Shown here: positions 1,677-47,996 of the stretch, in pieces
How positions within the stretch are numbered: position 1 is the first letter of the stretch
How the letters are laid out: each line of letters starts with the position of its first letter
Assembly (NCBI GenBank): GCA_023247035.1
Contig: JAHFHG010000001.1
Span: forward strand, 2,021 to 66,020
DNA length: 64,000 nucleotides
DNA from: Candidatus Omnitrophota bacterium
Lineage (GTDB): Bacteria > Omnitrophota > Omnitrophia > Omnitrophales > Aquincolibacteriaceae
Direction: 5' to 3'
Translations under genes and position numbers: made by a program
The notes under the pieces: model-generated
What the model was told of the DNA's origin: nothing
Databases searched by the model: none
What the model saw: only the letters and a program-made list of their open reading frames with translations

Positions 1677-2642
1677 ATGCCGGAACTTTTGCTCTCCCTT
1701 CCTAAATTGCGAAGCCGGAAAATAGACTGGGTTGAGATTGCCTCTTCTTTGACGGTCCGGTTTTTTACACTCGTTCCGCTGCTTGTGCTGCTGGCGATCT
1801 TAGGCAAAGTTTTTATCGAGGGTTCGGGGCGTATGAGCTGGTCCTTTTTAACCGAAGCCCCTGCCGAAGGAATGACTCAAGGAGGGATATTCCCCTGTAT
1901 TTTCGGCACGGCTGCGGTGACGGTTCTCATGATTATAATGGCCCTTCCTTTGGGCGTCGGAGCGGCCATTTATCTTGTTGAATACGGCAGCAGCAGCCTG
2001 CTTGTGCGGATGATCCGCGCTGCGGTGAACAATCTGGCCGGCGTGCCTTCTATTGTTTTTGGACTTTTCGGCGTCGGCTTTTTCATTCTCTTCGTCGGCC
2101 GGAATATCGATCGCGCGCTTCAGACAGGCCTTCTCTTCGGCCAGCCTTGTATGCTTTGGGCGGCGGCCACGCTTTCTGTTCTCACGCTTCCGGTGATTAT
2201 CGTGTCTACCGAGGAGGCGTTGAACGCGGTTCCGCAAAGCCACCGCGCCGCGTCTCTTGCGCTGGGAGCCACCAAGTGGCAGACGATCCGGGACGTTGTG
2301 TTGCCGCAGGCCCGCGGCGGGATTCTCACCGGCGCTATTCTGGCCATCAGCCGGGGCGCGGGCGAGACCGCGCCGATCCTTTTTACCGGCTGCGCCTACT
2401 TTCTGCCGCGCCTTCCGGTGGTGGAATTTTTAGGCATTCCGATGATCAATCCTTTGGACCAATTTATGGAACTTTCGTATCATATTTTCATTATGACGAC
2501 CCAGTCGATCAATGCCCAGGCCACGCGCCCCATTCAATATGCGACGACTTTGGTTTTGATTGTTTTGACGTTTTTACTTAATCTTTCAGCGGTCCTTTTG
2601 CGGTTTTATTTTAGAAAAAGGCTGGGACGGATTTCCCTGTAG
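1677..2642 (+). CDS. pstA: Phosphate ABC transporter permease PstA
   Basis: 321-aa membrane protein with a second permease signature (SLALGATKWQTIRDVVLP). Its start lies 2 nt after the pstC stop. Confidence 0.85.
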   Translation: MPELLLSLPKLRSRKIDWVEIASSLTVRFFTLVPLLVLLAILGKVFIEGSGRMSWSFLTEAPAEGMTQGGIFPCIFGTAAVTVLMIIMALPLGVGAAIYLVEYGSSSLLVRMIRAAVNNLAGVPSIVFGLFGVGFFILFVGRNIDRALQTGLLFGQPCMLWAAATLSVLTLPVIIVSTEEALNAVPQSHRAASLALGATKWQTIRDVVLPQARGGILTGAILAISRGAGETAPILFTGCAYFLPRLPVVEFLGIPMINPLDQFMELSYHIFIMTTQSINAQATRPIQYATTLVLIVLTFLLNLSAVLLRFYFRKRLGRISL

Positions 2643-2834
2643 CGAAATGACGTTTGAAATGCCGGGCAGGGAATATCCGAGGCTCCGTCAGAGGGGAAGT
2701 GATCCGCCATTTCTTCAAACTCCGGCGGAGCGCGATTTCTCAAGTGAGCAAGTGAGTTTGAATCCTAAGAAAGTAAGTTGGGTTCTGCGAATTTCCGAAT
2801 TCATGGAACATCACTCTTTGTGAGACAAGCGGTT

Positions 2835-2956
2835 GTCATTCCCGCGGCGGCCCCGAGAAACACCAAGCGTTTCCGGAGCTCAAGTCCTGGGAATCGCTCT
2901 GCGATTTCACGGGGGAATCCAAAATCCGTCATTCCCGATAAAAACATTCATGACGG
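2835..2956. repeat. Cluster of short palindromic repeats (TGTCATTCCCG / CCGTCAT...ATGACGG / GGGAATCC motifs) inside an anomalous pstA-pstB spacer
   Basis: TGTCATTCCCG lies at 2835-2845. CCGTCATTCCCG at 2927-2938 is paired with ATGACGG at 2950-2956. The same core recurs at 4641-4712 and 10359-10406. Confidence 0.4.
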
Positions 2957-3008
2957 AAAGAAAAGCAAAATTTGCGGAACTCAAGAATAAAGTAAGAAAG
3001 GCGGAACC

Positions 3009-3899
3009 ATGCGGAATGAAAAATGCGAGTTCACGGAAGCTGAAGAAGACACCTTCGAGCCTAAGGAGAATCCTATTTTAAGCCACGAGGAATTGAATTC
3101 CGACGAAAACGCTGGGCCGTCCCAGCCGGAATCGCTGGAAAAGGGGCGCATTAAAATCCGTGTGCGGAATTTAAGTTTGTTCTACGGCCCGACCCAGGCT
3201 TTGAAACAGGTCTATATGAAGATTTTGCGCCAGTCCGTGACGGCGCTGATCGGCCCTTCGGGATGCGGGAAGTCCACCTTTTTGCGGACGCTGAACCGGA
3301 TGAACGATACCATTCCCGGAGTGCGGATTGAGGGGCGGGTCCGGATCGATAACATTGATATTTACGGGCCTCAAATCAATGTCGTCGCTTTGCGCCGCGT
3401 GGTCGGGATGGTTTTTCAAAAATCAAACCCCTTTCCGAAAAGTATTTTTGACAACGTCGCTTACGGCCCGCGCCTGCACCGCATTAAAAGCCGGATTACC
3501 TTGAAGGAAATCGTCGAATCAAGTTTAAAAAAGGCGGCGTTGTGGGATGAGGTCAAGGACCGCCTTCATCAGTCCGCAATGGAGCTTTCCGGCGGCCAGC
3601 AGCAGAGGCTTTGCATTGCGAGGGCCTTGGCCGTGAATCCCGAGATTCTTTTAATGGACGAGCCGGCTTCCGCCCTCGACCCCATTTCTACGGGAAAAAT
3701 CGAAGAGCTGATCCATTCCCTGAAAGAAAATTACACGATCATTATCGTGACTCATAATATGCAGCAGGCGGCAAGGATCAGCGACTATACGGCTTATTTT
3801 TACCTTGGCTCCCTGGTGGAATATGGAACCACCAAGAAAATTTTTACCAATCCCGAACGCAAAGAGACCGAAGATTACGTGACCGGCAGGTTCGGGTAA
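3009..3899 (+). CDS. pstB: Phosphate ABC transporter ATP-binding protein PstB. The true start is probably downstream of 3009, for example TTG near 3092
   Basis: Walker [13 protein letters not shown] signature LSGGQQQRL and Walker [13 protein letters not shown] are present. The ORF track gives a roughly 50-aa acidic N-terminal extension running into the repeat-filled spacer, which is atypical for PstB. Confidence 0.85.
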
Positions 3900-3926
3900 C
3901 AGCCCAAGGGGGTTAAACGCCTATTT

Positions 3927-4592
3927 ATGTCCAGACATTTTCACGAAGAGCTTGAGGATCTGAAAAAAAGGCTCATCGAAATGAGCCTGCTCGTGGAAGA
4001 GGCAATTCAACGGGCGATTGAAGGGCTCCTTTATCGGAACACCGAGGCCGCTAAAGAAGTTTTCAAAAAGGAAAAGGTGATCAACAAACTTGAAATCGAG
4101 ATTGACGATAAGGGGCACAGTCTGCTGGCCCTTGGCCAGCCTATGGCCGTAGATATGCGGCTTATTACCTCCATTCTCAAAATCAATACGGACCTCGAGC
4201 GGCTGGGAGACCACGCCGTGAATATCGCCGAGCGGGCCCTTCTGCTTGCCGAAGAGCCTCGACTGGAAACCAACCTTTGTCTTCCTCAAATGACACAAGC
4301 TGTTCAGAGAATGCTCAGGATATCCCTGCGTGCTTTTATGACAGGCGATTTGGAGCTCGCGGGAAGAGCGCTTAAAGGCGACGACGAGGTGGACGCTTAC
4401 AATGATTTTCTTTATTCTCGAATGCAAGAGCTGATGGAAAAAGATGAGCTTGTCATCAAAACGGGAATGAAGCTTGTGCGGGTAGGGCACGATTTGGAAA
4501 GAATCGCGGACCTCGCCAACAACATTGCTGAAGACGTGATTTATTTAAAGCAGGGTAAAGAGGTCAGGCATCACCTCCACGATCCTGCCTAG
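3927..4592 (+). CDS. phoU: Phosphate transport system regulator PhoU
   Basis: 221 aa with two PhoU repeats (DxxGDHAVNIAE and ERIADLANNIAEDVIY). It is the last gene of the pst operon. Confidence 0.85.
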   Translation: MSRHFHEELEDLKKRLIEMSLLVEEAIQRAIEGLLYRNTEAAKEVFKKEKVINKLEIEIDDKGHSLLALGQPMAVDMRLITSILKINTDLERLGDHAVNIAERALLLAEEPRLETNLCLPQMTQAVQRMLRISLRAFMTGDLELAGRALKGDDEVDAYNDFLYSRMQELMEKDELVIKTGMKLVRVGHDLERIADLANNIAEDVIYLKQGKEVRHHLHDPA

Positions 4593-4642
4593 AAGCGTTC
4601 TCATAAAGAACCGCTTCTAGTACGGTGTCAATTTTATTTTTG
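4591..4642 (+). terminator. Putative intrinsic terminator of the pst-phoU operon
   Basis: Imperfect hairpin AGAAGCGTTC/GAACCGCTTCT overlaps the phoU stop and is followed by a T-rich run at 4632-4642. Confidence 0.4.
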
Positions 4643-4712
4643 TCATTCCCGCACGATGTTAAGCGGGAATCCACAAGCTTTGGATTCCCGATGAAACCAT
4701 TCGGGAATGACA
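4641..4712. repeat. Nested palindromic element (REP/MITE-like)
   Basis: Outer inverted repeat TGTCATTCCCG (4641-4651) pairs with CGGGAATGACA (4702-4712). Three internal hairpins are enclosed: ATTCCCGC/GCGGGAAT, GGAATCCA/TGGATTCC and CCCGA/TCGGG. Confidence 0.5.
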
Positions 4713-4961
4713 ATTTTAAACTTGACAGGGTACTAGGTTGGTTCAATTTTTCGGGTTTTTATCCTGATATTTCAGCGTCCAGATTTCAGAAACCACGACG
4801 TCTTCTGAAGCTACCCTATATCCCGGGTCGCGGGAAGAATCCATGGAATCGCCCTACTTTTCCAATAGAGTGGGGGCGCCTTGATCACTTGGCTGGCCCC
4901 TATCTGGATTCCCTCCGTTTTTAGAATCATTGAGGCGTTTTTTCTTGAGTCGAAATAAAGA

Positions 4962-4990
4962 TTGACATTCAAAGGCAACAAGTGCATTAT
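4962..4990 (+). promoter_or_regulatory. Sigma70-like promoter (TTGACA, 17-nt spacer, CATTAT) upstream of the csp leader
   Basis: TTGACA at 4962-4967 and CATTAT at 4985-4990. Confidence 0.4.
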
Positions 4991-5013
4991 CACTGCCTAA
5001 TCGAGAGTGAACT

Positions 5014-5055
5014 TATCCGTAAGGCTTAAGACTTTCGCCTTACGGATTTTTTTAT
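5014..5055 (+). terminator. Perfect 11-bp-stem hairpin plus T-run in the csp 5-prime leader. It could be an attenuator/terminator or the 3-prime end of a short sRNA
   Basis: ATCCGTAAGGC (5014-5024) pairs with GCCTTACGGAT (5036-5046), followed by TTTTTTTAT. It lies about 20 nt downstream of the predicted transcription start and about 85 nt upstream of the csp ATG. Confidence 0.5.
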
Positions 5056-5139
5056 TTAGGCCGCTTTTCAAGGATGCCCTTCTAAATAAATAGCCCGCTC
5101 TAAAAGTTTTTTATCTTCAAAAGAAAGGAGGATTTTCCA

Positions 5140-5340
5140 ATGGAAACAGGTATTGTGAAATGGTTTGATAACTCCAAAGGTTATGGATTTATCTCCCGTA
5201 GTACCGGCAAAGATGTGTTTGTTCACCACTCTGCAATTCAGGGTGAGGGTTACAAGTCCCTGTCCGAAGGCCAGCAGGTCGAGTTTGAAGTGACTCGAGG
5301 GCCCAAGGGCGATCAAGCCGTCAATGTTGTTGTGCGGTAG
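5140..5340 (+). CDS. Cold-shock protein (CspA family)
   Basis: 66 aa [18 protein letters not shown]...VFVHHSAIQ with RNP1/RNP2 motifs. Strong RBS AAAGGAGG at about 5123-5130. Confidence 0.9.
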
Positions 5341-8054: not shown

Positions 8055-8486
8055 TTGACACTTCTATCGAATGGAGGTGAGTTCACAGATGAAGAGAAAC
8101 GAGAAATCAGCGCTTATTTAGAATCATGGAAAGTCAAAAAGGAAAACAATCGGGAAGCGTACAAATCGATGCGAGTGGAGATCATTAAGAAATTACAAGA
8201 GGACAAATCACTTTCTCGGAAAGGGTCAAGTTTTAATTCATTTCTAAAATTAACATTTGAGCCGACAGCAATTGAGAAAATCAAAAATAGTATTACTGAG
8301 GTTTCAAAATCCAAAGGATACGATCCCCCCTCGGATTCCCTTGATTTTCCAAGGGAGAGGGGAGGAGGGGCGATATCCATTGAGTCCCGAAACCTCAGTA
8401 ACTCGAAAATTCCAAAAGATCGATTGGTTGAATATTGGACGCAACACAAGGAAAGATGCCCCTATTTTAATAAGGCCGTAGAATGA
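8055..8486 (+). CDS. Hypothetical protein in an AT-rich segment (start codon TTG; doubtful)
   Basis: 143-aa ORF with no motif I recognise. Local GC is clearly lower than the neighbours. It is preceded by a 39-aa ORF (7961-8080) that begins MSYKFIIDTNIL, a PIN-domain-like start. Confidence 0.25.
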   Translation: MTLLSNGGEFTDEEKREISAYLESWKVKKENNREAYKSMRVEIIKKLQEDKSLSRKGSSFNSFLKLTFEPTAIEKIKNSITEVSKSKGYDPPSDSLDFPRERGGGAISIESRNLSNSKIPKDRLVEYWTQHKERCPYFNKAVE

Positions 8487-8612: not shown

Positions 8613-10340
8613 ATGAAAACCCCGATGACGAAAGAGAAAATGGTGCAGGTCCTTGAGGAAATAGCGTTTCTTCTGGAGATAAAGGGCGAGAATTTTTTCA
8701 AGGTTCGGGCGTTTCAGAATGCAGCCCGTATTCTTGAAGGGCATCCGAGCGACGCGGGGACTCTGATTGAGACGGGCGAGCTTGAGAAGCTGAAAGGAAT
8801 CGGGAAGGGAACGATTGCAGAGATTGTCCACGATCTTTATGAGAAAGGGAAATCAAAGGGCTACGAAGAACTTCGCAAGGGATTTCCCGCAAGCCTGTTT
8901 GAACTTTTCAAAATACCCGGCTTCGGCGCCAAACGCATCAAGGCCGTTTACGAAAAGCTGGCCGTTCAATCCGTCGAAGGACTTGAATCCGCCGCTCAAA
9001 ACGGCCGCCTCGCCAAACTGGAAGGATTCGGAGAAAAATTGCAGGATAGGATTCTGGCGAATATCCGGCAGATGAAAAAATCCGAAGGGCGTTTTTTGAT
9101 CGACGTCGCCACAAACCAGGCGGGAAAATTACTTGCCTACCTCAAAAAACAAAAGGGGATCGAACGGATCGAAATTGCCGGAAGCCTCAGGCGCTGCAAA
9201 GAAATCGTCAAAGATATTGATATCCTTGTCAGCGCGAAAAATCCGCAGGCTATTCACGAGGCGTTTATCCAATATCCCGAAACGGCTTCGGTCATTGCGC
9301 ACGGCGAGACGAAATCCAGCATCGCGCTCAAGTCCGGAATGAATTGCGATTTAAGAACCGTGTCCCTTCGAGAGTTTCCCTGCGCCCTTTATTATTTCAC
9401 CGGAAGCAAAGAACACAACGTCGCCGTTCGGACAATTGCCAAAAAGAAAGGAATCAAAATCAACGAATACGGCCTGTTTAAAGGCAAGCGCCTGATCCCT
9501 TGCGCCAGCGAGGCGGAAATTTTTGAGCGCGTCGGGCTTCATTATATTCCTCCCGAGGTGCGGGAGAATACGGGCGAGATCGAATGGGCCGCCGAAAATA
9601 ATTTTCCCGATCTTATCGAAGAAAAAAATATCCGCGGAGTGTTTCACGTTCACTCCACTTACAGCGACGGCGTCGCCAGCCTTGAGGAAATGATCCGAAG
9701 CGCCCAAGAAAAAGGCTACGAATACGTGGGGATTTCCGATCACAGCCAGTCCGCGAAATATGCAGGAGGGCTCGAAGAGAAAAGGCTTTACCGGCAGTGG
9801 AAAGAAATCGACCAGCTTCAGAAACGTTTCAAGATCCGGATTTTTAAAGGGATTGAATCCGACATTCTGCGGGACGGGAGCCTCGACTATCCGGAGCCTA
9901 TCCTTTCTCAATTTGATTTTGTGATCGGCTCCGTGCACAGCCGCTTCAATCTTCCTGAAGCCGAGATGACGGAACGCCTGTGCCGCGCAATGGAAAATAA
10001 ATACACGACATTTTTGGGTCATCTCACGGGACGGCTGCTTTTGAGCCGCGAGGGTTACGCTCTCAATATGGAGCGCGTGATTCAAGCCGCAAAACAAACA
10101 GGCGCGGCCATTGAGCTGAACGCCCAGCCGCAGCGTCTTGAACTCGACTGGCGGTTTTGTCAAACCGCCAAGCGCGAAGGTGTCGGTATCAGCATTCACC
10201 CTGACGCGCACGCCGTGAGCCATATGAATTACGTGACGTACGGAATAGGAATTGCGCGCAAAGGCTGGCTTGAGAAAGAAAATGTGACGAATACCATGAA
10301 TCTCAATGCGATGGAAAAATTTTTGAAGAAGAGGAAGTAG
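8613..10340 (+). CDS. DNA polymerase X family protein with C-terminal PHP phosphoesterase domain (PolX)
   Basis: N-terminal HhH motifs (LKGIGKGTIAEI, IPGFGAKRIKAV). Pol-beta-like nucleotidyltransferase core (GSLRRCKEIVKDIDILV). PHP motifs (FHVHSTYSDG, ISDHS). Confidence 0.85.
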   Translation: MKTPMTKEKMVQVLEEIAFLLEIKGENFFKVRAFQNAARILEGHPSDAGTLIETGELEKLKGIGKGTIAEIVHDLYEKGKSKGYEELRKGFPASLFELFKIPGFGAKRIKAVYEKLAVQSVEGLESAAQNGRLAKLEGFGEKLQDRILANIRQMKKSEGRFLIDVATNQAGKLLAYLKKQKGIERIEIAGSLRRCKEIVKDIDILVSAKNPQAIHEAFIQYPETASVIAHGETKSSIALKSGMNCDLRTVSLREFPCALYYFTGSKEHNVAVRTIAKKKGIKINEYGLFKGKRLIPCASEAEIFERVGLHYIPPEVRENTGEIEWAAENNFPDLIEEKNIRGVFHVHSTYSDGVASLEEMIRSAQEKGYEYVGISDHSQSAKYAGGLEEKRLYRQWKEIDQLQKRFKIRIFKGIESDILRDGSLDYPEPILSQFDFVIGSVHSRFNLPEAEMTERLCRAMENKYTTFLGHLTGRLLLSREGYALNMERVIQAAKQTGAAIELNAQPQRLELDWRFCQTAKREGVGISIHPDAHAVSHMNYVTYGIGIARKGWLEKENVTNTMNLNAMEKFLKKRK

Positions 10341-10358: not shown

Positions 10359-10406
10359 TTGTCATTTGTGGATTCCGGCTCGGCCTTTGGCCGTCCGGAA
10401 TGACAA
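10359..10406. repeat. Palindromic element related to the 4641-4712 repeat
   Basis: TTGTCATT pairs with AATGACAA, and GGATTCCGG with CCGGAAT. The element sits between polX and nth, and the nominal nth ORF extension reads through it. Confidence 0.4.
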
Positions 10407-10431
10407 GCAGGATACAAATATCATTAACGTG

Positions 10432-16345: not shown

Positions 16346-17220
16346 CCGAGAGCCTCGGGCAAAAGACCCGCCTTTTTCTGGAGATGATCAAATTTGAGCA
16401 TTCCATTTTCGCCCTTCCTTTTGCTTACCTCGGCTTATTTTTAGCTCAAAAGGGCTGGCCGCGGTGGGATTTGTTTATCCGGGTCAGCGTGGCGATGATT
16501 TCGTTCCGGACAATGGCTATGGGATTCAACCGTTTGATCGACCTTCCCATTGACGGAGAAAATCCGCGCACGAAAAACCGGGCGCTTCCCGCCGGACATT
16601 TGAAACCTGCTTTTGTTTGGATCCTGACAGGGACGTCTTGGCTGGTTTTTGAGCTTAGCGCTTTTCGATTAGGTCAATTATGCTTTATGCTTTCTCCGGT
16701 TCCCGTCATTCTTGCCTGGATTTATCCTTGGACCAAAAGATTTACCTGGTTCTCCCATCTTGTTTTGGGTATCATACTCGGCATCGCCCCTTACGGCGGC
16801 TGGCTTGCAAGCCGGCCGGAGTTTTCCTGGGTGCCCGGGCTTCTGATGCTCGGCGTCGTGACTTGGGTTGCCGGATTCGACATCATTTACGCGCTGCAGG
16901 ATGAAAGTTTCGACCGCCAAAAAGGCCTTTATTCTTTTCCCGCCTGCTTCGGGCCTAAGGCTGCGCTCCGAGTGACAACCCTTTTTCACGTTATGACTTG
17001 GCTGGCTTGGTTTTCGGCAGGGATGCTTGCCGGCCTTGGGCATATCTATCAGCTTGGGATGGCGCTCGCGGGATTGTTTCTTATCCGGGAGCACTGGCTG
17101 ATCCGATCCTTCGGCATTCAGAAAGTCGAAGAGGCGTTTTTCACGATGAATGCCGTCGTCAGCGTTTCTGTTTTCTTAGCGGTTGTCGCAGATTTTTCTT
17201 TGGGGAAATTTTTCCAATGA
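16323..17220 (+). CDS. UbiA-family polyprenyltransferase (MqnP-like)
   Basis: FALPFAYLG...NRLIDLPIDGENPRTKNRALP is a UbiA Asp-rich motif. Start taken at internal ATG 16323 (MERVRLL), which overlaps the UbiD-like stop by 23 nt. Confidence 0.8.
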
Positions 17221-19794: not shown

Positions 19795-20482
19795 AGCCGC
19801 CTTGCAGGCTCCGCCGCTCCGGGTTTTTTTTGACGCGATCGCCTTCCGCTACGATTTTTTAAACAACCTTTTAAGCTTTCGCCTCGATGAATTGTGGAGA
19901 AAAAAGTCGGCCGCGATCGTCCTCCGGAATTCGGCGGCAAGTTCGATCTTGGACCTGGGGATCGGCACGGGGAAATTCATCCGCGTTTTTATGGAAGCCA
20001 AAAAATGGAAAAGGCTGGCGGGGATCGATTTTTCTTTCCCGATGCTTCACGCCGCAAAGAAAATCCTTCCTTCGGGCGTTGGATTCCTCCGCGCGGATTT
20101 TCAATCCCTGCCTTTCAGGAAGGGGAGTTTTGACCTTGTGATCTCCGCTTTTGCCTTAAGGAGCGTGCGGCAAATGCCGCTGTTCCTGCAAGGCGTCTGG
20201 GAGGTTTTGAGTGAAAAAGGCAAAGCGGCCTTTCTGTGCCTCACGCGTCCGGAAAATATTTTCTGGAGGATTTTTTATTTTCCCTACTTGAAATTTTACC
20301 TCCCCGTTGTCGGAGGCCTCGTTTCCGGTAATTTTCAGGCCTACCGGTTTCTTTCCGATTCTATTTTAAGCTTCCAGGAGCCGGAGAAGACGGCCTCAAT
20401 GATGCGCGAAACCGGATTCCAAAGCGTTAAGATCCACCGTTTTTCTTTTGGGATTGCGACTTTGATCGTGGGTGAAAAATAA
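19781..20482 (+). CDS. Class I SAM-dependent methyltransferase, UbiE/MenG-like (demethylmenaquinone methyltransferase)
   Basis: FDAIAFRYDFLNNLLS...ILDLGIGTGKF motif I. Start taken at in-frame ATG 19781, overlapping the stop of the radical SAM gene. Confidence 0.7.
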   Translation: MSSTEAALQAPPLRVFFDAIAFRYDFLNNLLSFRLDELWRKKSAAIVLRNSAASSILDLGIGTGKFIRVFMEAKKWKRLAGIDFSFPMLHAAKKILPSGVGFLRADFQSLPFRKGSFDLVISAFALRSVRQMPLFLQGVWEVLSEKGKAAFLCLTRPENIFWRIFYFPYLKFYLPVVGGLVSGNFQAYRFLSDSILSFQEPEKTASMMRETGFQSVKIHRFSFGIATLIVGEK

Positions 20483-20497
20483 AGAAAGCTGAATGAA

Positions 20498-21004
20498 ATG
20501 CCGGTGGATTATCAAAGAAGAATCCAGGAATTGAAACTTCATTTGCCGAAGGCCCCCCAGCCTTCGGGTTCTTACCGGCCCGTTGTCATTTCCGGAGAAT
20601 ACGCTTTTTTGAGCGGGCAAATATCGAAAACGTCCGACGGCCGGATCTTATCCGGGAAATTAGGGCAAGACCTGACCCTTGAAGCCGGCCAGGCGGCGGC
20701 AAAGTGCGCGGCGCTTAACGTGCTGGGAGTGATTCATGACCTGATCGGATTCGCGCGCTTTGAGCGGATGATACGGGTTGTCGGGTATGTTCAGTCCTCG
20801 GCCGGTTTTTATGAAATTTCACAAGTGATGAACGGGGCCTCGGATTTCTTCCTTGAGGTTTTGGGAGAAAGCGGCCTCCACGCCCGTTCGGCTGTGGGAA
20901 TGGCGAGCCTTCCGCTCAATGCCGCCGTGGAAATCGAAGCTACGATTCAAATCATTAAATCGGGCCATTCAGAAAAACCCCGGAGGTTGCGGCGGACACC
21001 ATGA
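20498..21004 (+). CDS. RidA/YjgF-family reactive intermediate deaminase
   Basis: PSGSYRPVVISGEYAFLSGQIS ... AVEIEATIQI fits the chorismate-mutase-like fold. Confidence 0.65.
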   Translation: MPVDYQRRIQELKLHLPKAPQPSGSYRPVVISGEYAFLSGQISKTSDGRILSGKLGQDLTLEAGQAAAKCAALNVLGVIHDLIGFARFERMIRVVGYVQSSAGFYEISQVMNGASDFFLEVLGESGLHARSAVGMASLPLNAAVEIEATIQIIKSGHSEKPRRLRRTP

Positions 21005-46033: not shown

Positions 46034-47228
46034 AGGCAATCCATTTTCCTCCTTGGGCCGTGAATTCTTTTTCTTTTTCCAGAATTTCTTTCGCGTGATT
46101 CCACGCAAAGAGGAGCGCGAAATCCGGATAAGGAGCGCGGAAGGCGCGGGAAGGGACAATAGGAAGGTGAGCGCCCGGGCTGAACTTTCCCTGTTTCGCC
46201 GGAGTCGAATCGCAGATGGCTTCAACGAATTCGCGGCCGATCCCGCAAAAGTTAAGCACGGTCGTACTCTTGGAAGCGGCCCCGTAGCCCAGGACGCGTT
46301 TTCTTTTTTGTTTCAGATCCGTTAAAAGGCGCACCAAATCTTTTTTAGATTTTCCGCACCGGATTCTGAATTTTTCATAGGTCGAGAAATCCGCAACGCC
46401 CGATTTTTTTTCCGCGGCAAAGAGTTTCTCAACGCCCTTGGACGGAACATGCTCTCCCTCGCGGGCAACGGTATAACGCATCGATCCGCCGTGCGTTTGC
46501 TGCGGGTTAACGTCAATCACCCGCAGGCCGTGAGGCTGAAGAGCGTTCTGTAAGGACGTCAGGGAAAAAACAAAGGCGTGTTCATCATAGATTTGGTCGT
46601 AGGAGGTTTGGCGAAGCATATCGCAGAGGTAAGGATCTTCAAAAATCGCGACTCCTTTGGTTTTCAGGAGAATGCGGATCCCTTCCAGGGCGGAGTGGAG
46701 GTAAGAAATATGGCACATCACGTTGGCGGCCAGAAAAACGTCGGCCGGCCCGGAATCACGCACAATGTGCAAGGCCAGCGCTTCATCGAAAAAACCCGAG
46801 TGAACCTGGACGCCGTGTTCTTGGGCGGCGCGAGCGACGCCGGCGGAGGGCTCGATTCCTAAGTGGCGAATACCGGCTTCGGAGAAGTGTTTCAGCAGTG
46901 TGCCGTCGTTCGTGCCGATTTCAACGACAAAGGCCGTTGGATCGGGAATGAAATGTTCCAGGACATCCCGGGCTAAGGATTGGAAGTGAGAAGCCATATG
47001 GGAGGAACTTCCGGAAAGAAAAGGATAGCCGTCGTGAAACATGGATTCCCTGGCCGGCTGATCCAGGAGCTGGACCATTTTACACGAAGGGCAAAACGCG
47101 GCTTTTAAGTCGAAAAAGATTTCGCCCGCGAACTCCTCTTCGGACAGAAACGCATTGGCCTTGGGCATCGGCCCCAAATCCAAAAAAGGCTCGATCGGGA
47201 AGCCGCAGATCAGGCAGTTTTTTCCCAT
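46005..47228 (-). CDS. Sugar C-methyltransferase (N-terminal Cys4 zinc finger + class I SAM MTase + C-methyltransferase C-terminal domain)
   Basis: CLICG...CPSCKMVQL zinc ribbon. A SAM-binding motif (VVEIGTNDG). The overall length and architecture resemble NDP-hexose C-methyltransferases. Confidence 0.7.
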   Translation of the reverse strand: MGKNCLICGFPIEPFLDLGPMPKANAFLSEEEFAGEIFFDLKAAFCPSCKMVQLLDQPARESMFHDGYPFLSGSSSHMASHFQSLARDVLEHFIPDPTAFVVEIGTNDGTLLKHFSEAGIRHLGIEPSAGVARAAQEHGVQVHSGFFDEALALHIVRDSGPADVFLAANVMCHISYLHSALEGIRILLKTKGVAIFEDPYLCDMLRQTSYDQIYDEHAFVFSLTSLQNALQPHGLRVIDVNPQQTHGGSMRYTVAREGEHVPSKGVEKLFAAEKKSGVADFSTYEKFRIRCGKSKKDLVRLLTDLKQKRKRVLGYGAASKSTTVLNFCGIGREFVEAICDSTPAKQGKFSPGAHLPIVPSRAFRAPYPDFALLFAWNHAKEILEKEKEFTAQGGKWIAYVPEVKILG

Positions 47229-47231
47229 GAT

Positions 47232-47996
47232 TTAGAAAGACACGAGGAGGCCCGGCCTTCCGGCATTCATCGTAAGGCTTTCCGGCACAATCGTGGCGTT
47301 GAGATTCAGGCGCCGGATCAATGCCGCAAGTTCTTTTTCCGAAAAAATAAGCGTCTTGGCGGTCTTGCCGAAAGTCCGGTAGTCGCCGCCGGAAAAATAA
47401 TTTTCGAGAACGCCTTCCTTAAAGAGTTTATAGAGATAACCTTCTCGAAGTCCCAGCAGGATAGACCGAAGCGCGTCTCCGAAGGACTGCCAAGGGTTTC
47501 TGCTTAAAGGGATATCCGCGATGAGCAAACGCGCGCCGGGCCGCGCAATTCGTTTGGCATTTTGGATCATGTTTTCAATTTCCCGGATATTCCGGTAGTA
47601 CTGGACGACGCTGACAAAAAGGAACAGGGTGAAATTTTTTTTGCAGAAATCGAAGTCCGTATAATCGCCTTCTATTTGCCGGACGGTGACGTTTGCAGAG
47701 GCCCTGCAATTTTTCTTGCACATTTCCACGAAGCGCGGCGAAGTATCCAGCGCGTGAAGGCTCTTTACGTGCGGCGCGAGGAGGGATTCCAAATGGCCCG
47801 TCCCGCAGCCGACTGTCAGGACCTCATCTTCAGGTTGAAGGGCGACAACGGCTTTGAAGCGGTTGAAGAAAATTCGCGCGTTGATCTCCCACAATTCGGA
47901 GGAGGTCCAAAACTGGTCCTGATTCCAGTATTCGATCCAGCCGGAAGGGATCTCAGGCGGCGCATTGGATTTGGCATTCAAGACGGAGGGCGTCAT
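47232..47996 (-). CDS. Class I SAM-dependent methyltransferase
   Basis: Motif I (VLTVGCGTGHL) and an acidic motif II. Start set at internal ATG 47996 (MTPSVLNAK) to avoid a 105-nt overlap with the upstream gene. Confidence 0.6.
   Translation of the reverse strand: MTPSVLNAKSNAPPEIPSGWIEYWNQDQFWTSSELWEINARIFFNRFKAVVALQPEDEVLTVGCGTGHLESLLAPHVKSLHALDTSPRFVEMCKKNCRASANVTVRQIEGDYTDFDFCKKNFTLFLFVSVVQYYRNIREIENMIQNAKRIARPGARLLIADIPLSRNPWQSFGDALRSILLGLREGYLYKLFKEGVLENYFSGGDYRTFGKTAKTLIFSEKELAALIRRLNLNATIVPESLTMNAGRPGLLVSF

Follow-up and report, generated by a model that had tools for sequence, protein, structure and literature searches.

What kind of element are the nested palindromes that lie between genes in the genome of a Candidatus Omnitrophota bacterium, and by what relationship were they spread? 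The stretch analysed here (the window) comprises 64,000 nucleotides of assembly GCA_023247035.1 (contig JAHFHG010000001.1, positions 2,021 to 66,020, forward strand), and all coordinates below are those of the window unless a locus handle precedes them. It carries a 72-bp palindromic element (4641-4712) just downstream of phoU, and related sequences in the pstA-pstB spacer and between polX and nth. An original prediction, made from the sequence alone, described these as a dispersed family resembling repetitive extragenic palindromic (REP) sequences and BIMEs, or miniature inverted-repeat transposable elements (MITEs), and possibly as structured RNA. We consider it quite probable that the window palindromes are copies of the CGTC/TGTC-tagged REP superfamily, also known as Neisseria dRS3/NTS and as Ssn-related motifs (SRM), and that they were spread through the relationship between the nuclease Ssn and its hairpin. 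The kind of repeat is already known, having been described in 2013 and 2025, while the Omnitrophota host and the long-loop variant are new.

By inspection of the sequence, the 72-bp element is built from one hairpin unit that is present twice, in inverted orientation, and that comprises a TGTC tag, an 8-bp AT-initial stem (ATTCCCGN), a loop and a CCA tail:

4641-4674, plus strand: unit A, with tag TGTC at 4641-4644, stem ATTCCCGC at 4645-4652, a 10-nt loop at 4653-4662, stem GCGGGAAT at 4663-4670 and tail CCA at 4671-4673.

4679-4712, minus strand: unit B, with tag TGTC at 4712-4709, stem ATTCCCGA at 4708-4701, a 9-nt loop at 4700-4692, stem TCGGGAAT at 4691-4684 and tail CCA at 4683-4681.

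Together the two units form a dimer with the tags outside (an HH dimer) and with a 7-nt spacer, CAAGCTT, at 4674-4680. The 11-bp terminal inverted repeat (TGTCATTCCCG, 4641-4651, and CGGGAATGACA, 4702-4712) and the three inner hairpins are all perfect, exactly as they had been described from the sequence; the inner hairpins pair ATTCCCGC with GCGGGAAT (4645-52/4663-70), CGGGAATCCA with TGGATTCCCG (4664-73/4681-90) and ATTCCCGA with TCGGGAAT (4684-91/4701-08). This pattern of a terminal repeat and three hairpins arises because a 7-8-nt word (ATTCCCG or its complement CGGGAAT) is present four times within 4641-4712 in alternating orientation and its copies pair all-against-all, each arm being able to pair with two others.

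Repeats of this anatomy were defined as CGTC-tagged REPs by Di Nocera, De Gregorio and Rocco (BMC Genomics 2013, PMC3733652), with a tag CGTC (variants TGTC and CCTC), an 8-9-bp stem that has complementary A + T in the first and second positions, a 4-5-nt loop, for which exceptions with other lengths are mentioned, and a CCA tail; the family CGTC-1 includes Neisseria dRS3. In that survey the repeats were mostly HH dimers, intergenic and downstream of open reading frames (ORFs), with tens to thousands of copies per genome, and they occurred in five phyla, mostly in alpha-Proteobacteria, with no dedicated transposase linked to them (PMC3733652). The window units share the tag, the AT-initial stem (a perfect 8 bp in units A and B, and 7 bp, ATTCCGG/CCGGAAT, in the unit between polX and nth), the CCA tail, the HH dimer and the intergenic site downstream of ORFs, and they differ in their host, which is an Omnitrophota bacterium.

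The second counterpart is the Neisseria NTS, CGTCATTCCCGCGMAVGCGGGAATCYRG, which contains dRS3 (ATTCCC-N8-GGGAAT) (PMC11893778, Nat Commun 2025). The GIY-YIG protein SsnA has 94 aa and a single domain, and the NTS that it binds and cuts must be single-stranded DNA (ssDNA), neither double-stranded DNA nor RNA being accepted; the C that directly follows the palindrome matters most for binding, the three bases before the palindrome mainly affect cleavage, and ssn genes are typically flanked by the motif (PMC11893778). Outside the loop, unit A is identical to this sequence in tag, stem and tail (GTCATTCCCGC..GCGGGAATCC in the window), and each of the three intact window units has GTC ahead of its stem and C behind it. 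The published SRM pattern, HGTCWYN(0-2)YYVSBRHN(0-5)WNVSBRGN(0-2)RNCYNB (PMC11893778), has a single match in the window, at 4641-4674(+), which is unit A, while random sequence gives a mean of 0.31 matches.

To place the window units statistically, we used a covariance model (R1) derived from an alignment (A2) of 117 units, all from other genomes and with no window sequence among them, and scanned the window with all filters disabled. It recovered three intact units, and nothing further below E 0.4: unit B (43.7 bits, E 2e-9, model match 4679-4715(-)), unit A (42.4 bits, E 4.3e-9, 4638-4675(+)) and the polX/nth unit (28.7 bits, E 2.1e-5, 10367-10408(-)). The words GTCATTCCCG and TGTCATTCCNG each occur four times in the window, against 0.10 and 0.12 expected, respectively, and neither count is reached in any of 100 shuffles. 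Chance palindromes are rejected by these word counts and by the covariance-model E-values, and the suggestion of a dispersed REP/BIME-like family is borne out by the match of the units to the CGTC/TGTC-tagged superfamily. Self-BLAST of the window loci returned only shared words of 10-13 nt, which is uninformative because the loops differ. The same loci recur without any difference in assemblies made independently from other samples (the DNA as a whole being at least 99.9% identical), and therefore they are not an assembly artefact.

Besides the dimer after phoU, the window holds two further loci:

10359-10408, minus strand: single variant unit with stem ATTCCGG/CCGGAAT, tag TGTC at 10405-10402, tail CCA at 10371-10369 and 14-16 nt between the arms.

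2833-2957, plus strand: decayed dimer in the 366-bp pstA-pstB spacer, recognized by its arms and tags only.

The unit at polX/nth begins 19 nt past the polX stop codon and ends ~21 nt ahead of the likely nth start (10429/10432). It is a true family member, with the same tag and tail and a compensated stem, ATTCCGGN, which is the third commonest stem type of the family; at this locus an extra TTGTCATT (10359-10366) pairs with AATGACAA (10399-10406). In the pstA-pstB spacer, a left tag and arm, TTGTCATTCCCGCG (2833-2846), are followed after ~63 nt by a right arm and tail, CGGGGGAATCCA (2910-2921), and then by another unit, CGTCATTCCCGAT...TTC/ATGACGG (2927-2956); by a by-eye alignment to 4684-4712, the right arm of this unit seems to be short of 4 nt (GGGA). 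The tags are TGTC at 2834-2837 and CGTC at 2927-2930, CCA lies at 2919-2921, the exact word GTCATTCCCG is found at 2835 and 2928, and 2931-2949 matches 4684-4702 over 19 nt (89%). The covariance search of the window with R1 did not detect this copy, which we read as a probable decayed dimer on the strength of its arms and tags. Of the two related copies that had been proposed, 10359-10406 is thus a genuine one and 2835-2956 a decayed one that escapes the model. All copies are intergenic, as proposed, while the placement at operon boundaries fails for 2835-2956, which lies inside the pst operon. The decayed repeat insertion (125 bp) would partly explain the unusual length of the 366-bp spacer.

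The family extends well beyond this genome. A search for the pattern TTGTCATTCCCG-N8-16-CGGGAATCC in a collection of species-representative genomes gave at least 118 stretches, and among the matches listed are metagenome-assembled genomes (MAGs) labelled as more than 15 phyla, a breadth that is indicative only, as MAG contig labels may carry binning errors. The labels among the matches listed include Nitrospirota, Ignavibacteria/Bacteroidota, Omnitrophota, Dadabacteria, Thermodesulfobacteriota, Elusimicrobiota, Planctomycetota, Chloroflexota, Patescibacteria, Alpha- and Gammaproteobacteria and others, together with two archaeal MAGs, and a collection of viral contigs gave 25 stretches, up to four per contig. 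The expectation that such elements would be lineage-specific and often undescribed does not hold, given this range and the publications of 2013 and 2025; at the level of the family, copies and a conserved consensus exist outside the window.

When the search was relaxed to GTC followed by an 8-bp stem that begins with AT and has no more than one mismatch, a loop and a C, the fetched loci (0.8 Mb) yielded 317 units, compared with 8 after shuffling; the fetched loci had themselves been selected by the pattern, and only the units beyond its 135 matches are independent. A stricter count, with loops of at most 18 nt, gave 273 tagged units in the 0.8 Mb, of which 21% lie inside crude ORF calls, compared with a coding coverage of 83%. 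The stem varies with compensation (ATTCCCG, ATCCCCG, ATGCCCG, ATTCCGG, ATTCCTG) between a tag, GTCAT, and a tail, ATCC, that are both fixed. Among the 135 matches listed, the commonest loop length is 11 nt (85 matches), and the base after ...GGGAATCC is A in 88%. Among 167 pattern matches listed, we counted 37 distinct tags-outside dimers of 60-104 bp, the closest to the window dimer being Omnitrophota dimers in loci L102 and L033 and a dimer in L052, with 73-77% identity over 78 columns and the same short spacer.

Several observations on these loci may be recorded here. Exact matches to the bacterial unit lie on the archaeal MAG contigs L111 (Nanoarchaeia) and L133 (Methanoperedens), for which real transfer and binning contamination are both possible. 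On the viral contigs L007, L011, L013 and others, GTCAT-tagged hairpins with quite different stems (GTCATTGCGAG..., GTCATCCTGAAC...) stand beside ATTCCCG units, so that the tag is seemingly common to several stem families on the same contigs. Head-to-tail arrays of dimers with a period of ~110 bp occur in L132 (3219-5047, Chloroflexia MAG, at least 10 copies) and L033 (6685-6943, Omnitrophota MAG), and resemble the clustered organisation reported for Neisseria and Wolbachia.

The link to Ssn comes from the genes next to the units. In five of the pattern-selected loci (L033, L095, L016, L134 and L063) a GIY-YIG gene lies 6-45 nt from a unit. The gene in L033, an Omnitrophota MAG, encodes a 97-aa protein (Pfam GIY-YIG, E 9e-17) and is accompanied by a complete dimer immediately upstream, by a split unit on its downstream side and by a dimer array nearby; the dimers adjoining this ssn gene are ~75% identical to the window dimer. 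The residues Y13, Y24 and E71 of the protein are spaced like the published catalytic residues Y6, Y17 and E64, and would be their counterparts. The putative kinship of the environmental GIY-YIG proteins to SsnA (cd10448) is supported by Pfam, by their size of ~95 aa in a single domain and by this spacing.

The association was also approached from the protein side, with 81 loci (80 metagenomic and one viral) picked only through an alignment of four GIY-YIG (Ssn) proteins. In the 191 kb of these loci, R1 gave 168 matches at E 1e-3 or better. A tagged hairpin, by the strict pattern, lies within 150 nt of the gene in 72 of the 81 loci, the median distance between gene and hairpin is 18-19 nt, and the commonest stem is ATTCCCGC, the stem of unit A. 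In 26 loci hairpins are found on both sides of the gene with the tags outward, and therefore the ssn gene occupies the position of the spacer in a gene-less dimer.

On the model of the published system, each unit would fold into a hairpin when its DNA passes through a single-stranded stage (replication, repair, uptake or transfer), and the small single-domain GIY-YIG nuclease Ssn would bind this hairpin and cut beside the tag. The gene-less window dimer has the same end geometry as an ssn cassette, in which ssn stands between two tags-outward units, and most likely it arose, and was spread or retained, through the nuclease-hairpin relationship, in analogy to the REPINs and their REP-associated tyrosine transposases (RAYTs). 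The shared geometry of the dimer and the ssn bracket is consistent with the unproven idea of a mobile system, selfish or domesticated, made up of Ssn and its hairpins. That the tags-outside dimer without a gene (72 bp in the window, 60-104 bp in other loci) is a non-autonomous, MITE-like derivative of an "SRM-ssn-SRM" cassette, copied by way of the ssDNA cutting of the GIY-YIG nuclease, is a tentative proposal that we consider doubtful; if true, it would constitute a mode of mobility that no element has yet been shown to use, and would explain how one nearly invariant hairpin comes to be present on viral contigs, in two archaeal MAGs and in bacterial MAGs whose labels span more than 15 phyla.

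Several results weigh against assigning the window units to this superfamily and to Ssn. The loops of 10, 9 and 14-16 nt are longer than that of NTS and than the 4-5 nt of the CGTC-tagged REPs; the window units are a long-loop variant outside the four named CGTC families. Of the three intact units, unit A alone passes the SRM pattern, as unit B misses it at one position (A where B is required) and the loop of 10367-10408 is too long. No ssn homologue or remnant was found in the window, spacers included (tblastn, E > 2), and the genes called in a further 11.7 kb of the source genome (9.7 kb on the downstream side of the window and 2 kb on the upstream side) include no GIY-YIG gene, although no protein search aimed at ssn was made there. 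The same 11.7 kb holds no further unit, so that the three intact units and the one decayed locus, all intergenic, lie in the first 10.4 kb of the ~76 kb of source genome covered, at a density that is low and uneven within this part. In addition, the breadth of the family depends on the MAG labels, and the percentage of paired positions is partly circular because the aligned units were selected for complementarity, which does not apply to the diversity of compensated stems under an invariant tag. Finally, no mechanism of copying to new sites is known for any family member.

With these reservations, assignment to the CGTC-REP/SRM superfamily gives the three odd palindromes of this genome one name and one explanation. 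It extends the superfamily to Omnitrophota and, by MAG labels, to many uncultured phyla, and it documents a long-loop variant, units of which the published search pattern largely misses. Relative to existing knowledge, nothing is changed in kind.

The folding of the dimer bears on a different explanation, in which the elements act mainly as RNA. The element lies within a larger, 120-bp palindrome (4617-4736), the longest inverted repeat of the window, with arms at 4617-4651 and 4702-4736 (35 nt, 83% complementary) whose outer parts are:

4617-4640, strand not assigned: left outer arm, CTAGTACGGTGTCAATTTTATTTT, which pairs with 4713-4736; locus-specific and outside the repeat family.

4713-4736, strand not assigned: right outer arm, ATTTTAAACTTGACAGGGTACTAG.

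These 24-nt arms were rejected as part of the repeat family, as no conservation is seen in the flanks of other dimers; the arms may represent an older hairpin that received the dimer in its loop. The whole of 4617-4736 folds as one long hairpin (DNA, -39.5 kcal/mol, z -9.2; RNA, z -8.6). By itself, the window dimer also folds best as one long hairpin because it is a homodimer, both of its hairpins having one stem, and this folding is a property of the window copy, not of the family. The closing stem around three hairpins, as originally envisaged, is right as far as the pairings themselves go, and it falls short in that the palindrome is larger and the four pairings share arms, and therefore cannot all form simultaneously. 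A separate strong hairpin, CTAGAAGCGTTCT...AGAACCGCTTCTAG, at 4591-4622 overlaps the stop codon of phoU and directly adjoins the 120-bp palindrome; it is outside the repeat family and has no adjacent T-run, hence it is no obvious terminator.

In an alignment of 26 dimers, the two local hairpins are 99% paired and 39 cells are changed on both sides, a number reached in none of 500 shuffles; hairpin 1 was fixed by the search pattern, so that only hairpin 2 is informative. The closing stem and the central hairpin show no compensatory change in the same dimers, and have breaks or wobbles where hairpin 2 differs from hairpin 1. Covariation, which had been proposed as the way to separate an RNA structure from a DNA palindrome, is therefore present in the local hairpins and missing from the closing stem (39 against 0), and a single RNA fold with a closing stem is rejected at the level of the family.

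All copies follow closely on a coding region, each between two genes that run in the same direction, and would therefore be transcribed as stable 3' RNA hairpins, which may affect mRNA ends as a side effect. It is conceivable, and in our judgement unlikely, that this is their main role, either as 3'-end hairpins that stop exonucleases or attenuate read-through (with differential expression of the pst operon, phoU and polX) or as structured non-coding RNA. The RNA fold of 4585-4745 is very stable (-65.7 kcal/mol, z = -8.6), the covariation of the stems fits RNA as well as ssDNA, and many REPs have been argued to be transcribed and to act as RNA (Di Nocera et al.). On the other hand, there is no intrinsic terminator or T-tract at any window copy and no Rfam match in the whole window at gathering score, a search of 2600-5200 by E-value threshold giving only a chance-level hairpin match (24 bits against a 200-bit threshold). 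The units stand in both orientations relative to the genes, they are missing at the same positions in the nearest available relatives, and the stem sequence is conserved across phyla well beyond the needs of pairing; in addition, the published partner protein Ssn does not bind the RNA form (PMC11893778). The structured RNA that had been suggested, with a closing stem and three hairpins, is not supported, and an RNA role is at best a secondary effect of a DNA repeat.

The split units deserve separate mention. At window 2835-2919 and at L033 6948-7105 and 7138-7255, the intact halves of a hairpin are 60-130 nt apart with unrelated DNA in the loop, which suggests that loops serve as insertion places for other DNA or that some process breaks the units there. 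These split hairpins, and the presence of the motif on viral contigs, would fit attachment or target sites for site-specific recombinases, as Neisseria dRS3 is for a phage recombinase, in place of nuclease substrates. We regard this as quite unlikely: no recombinase gene recurs beside the units, although a systematic screen for one was not made, and a recombinase role would add to the Ssn relationship rather than replace it.

Mobilisation as REPINs by a RAYT, a Y1 tyrosine transposase, or an origin as classic MITEs derived from insertion sequences, is very improbable. As in REPINs and the E. coli BIMEs, short palindromic units form inverted pairs between genes, the inverted dimer can fold into one long hairpin, and a single-copy "domesticated" gene is flanked by units; yet the RAYT-associated REPs have the tag GTAG and a Y1 HUH transposase as their enzyme, whereas here the tag is TGTC/CGTC and the recurrent neighbour is a GIY-YIG gene (the loci were not systematically screened for a Y1 transposase), and the 2013 survey linked no transposase to CGTC REPs (PMC3733652). 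With MITEs such as the Neisseria Correia element, the window family shares its small size, terminal inverted repeats, lack of coding capacity and position between genes, but the "terminal inverted repeat" is here the tag and stem of two units. The proposed check for target-site duplications was negative, as 36 dimers show no consistent duplication of 3-5 nt at any offset (the flanks ATTTT/ATTTT of the window dimer are not a family trait), nor was a transposase-derived parent insertion sequence found, so that the label MITE, in its strict sense, has to be dropped.

The genes around the elements agree with those originally named: pstC, pstA, pstB, PhoU, PolX and the Nth-like protein were identified by Pfam. 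Among named PhoU proteins, those nearest to the one in the window all come from MAGs of Candidatus Omnitrophota/Omnitrophica. The order at the left end is pstS, pstC (644-1675), pstA (1677-2642), the 366-bp spacer, pstB (3009-3899), phoU (3927-4592), the 72-bp element and a cold-shock gene (5140-5340), with polX (8613-10340) and then the nth-like gene further along the window. In the two nearest available relatives (PhoU 73% and 65% identical) there are no units at either pst position or anywhere in 14 kb, and the pstA-pstB spacer of one of them is 132 bp. This absence argues against a conserved regulatory element of the pst operon, the relatives being too distant for dating of the insertion.

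The E. coli Pho-box half-site is CTGTCAT. A reading of the palindromes as Pho-regulon operators, suggested by the direct repeat TGTCAAT-N8-TGTCATT at 4626-4647, which resembles this half-site in its TGTCA, and by the location of two of the three loci in the pst-phoU cluster, is barely credible and was rejected for its spacing, for its position and because the unit is widespread elsewhere: the repeat period is 15 nt and not 11, the second TGTCA is the REP tag, the copies are downstream of or inside the operon rather than at its promoter and are missing from the pst loci of the relatives, and the same unit is found in the polX/nth spacer and, in other phyla, in hundreds of unrelated settings.

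Some features of the window outside the repeat family remain to be noted. Three intervals of 0.65-1.1 kb (46863-47992, 20142-20852 and 16346-16997) contain no ORF of at least 80 aa in a crude gene call, no tRNA and no Rfam match at gathering score. The assembly L001, obtained independently for the same organism (99.96% identical), has ~120 extra bases (L001 10505-10624) relative to window 8482-8483, which are non-palindromic and unrelated to the repeat family; ORF 8055-8486 ends early in the window (143 aa), the corresponding gene in L001 encodes 189 aa, and the protein has no Pfam match. This difference is either a strain-level deletion or an assembly difference. Inside the same ORF, at 8293-8401, lies the second-longest inverted repeat of the window, with 40-nt arms that are 73% complementary and 29 nt between them.

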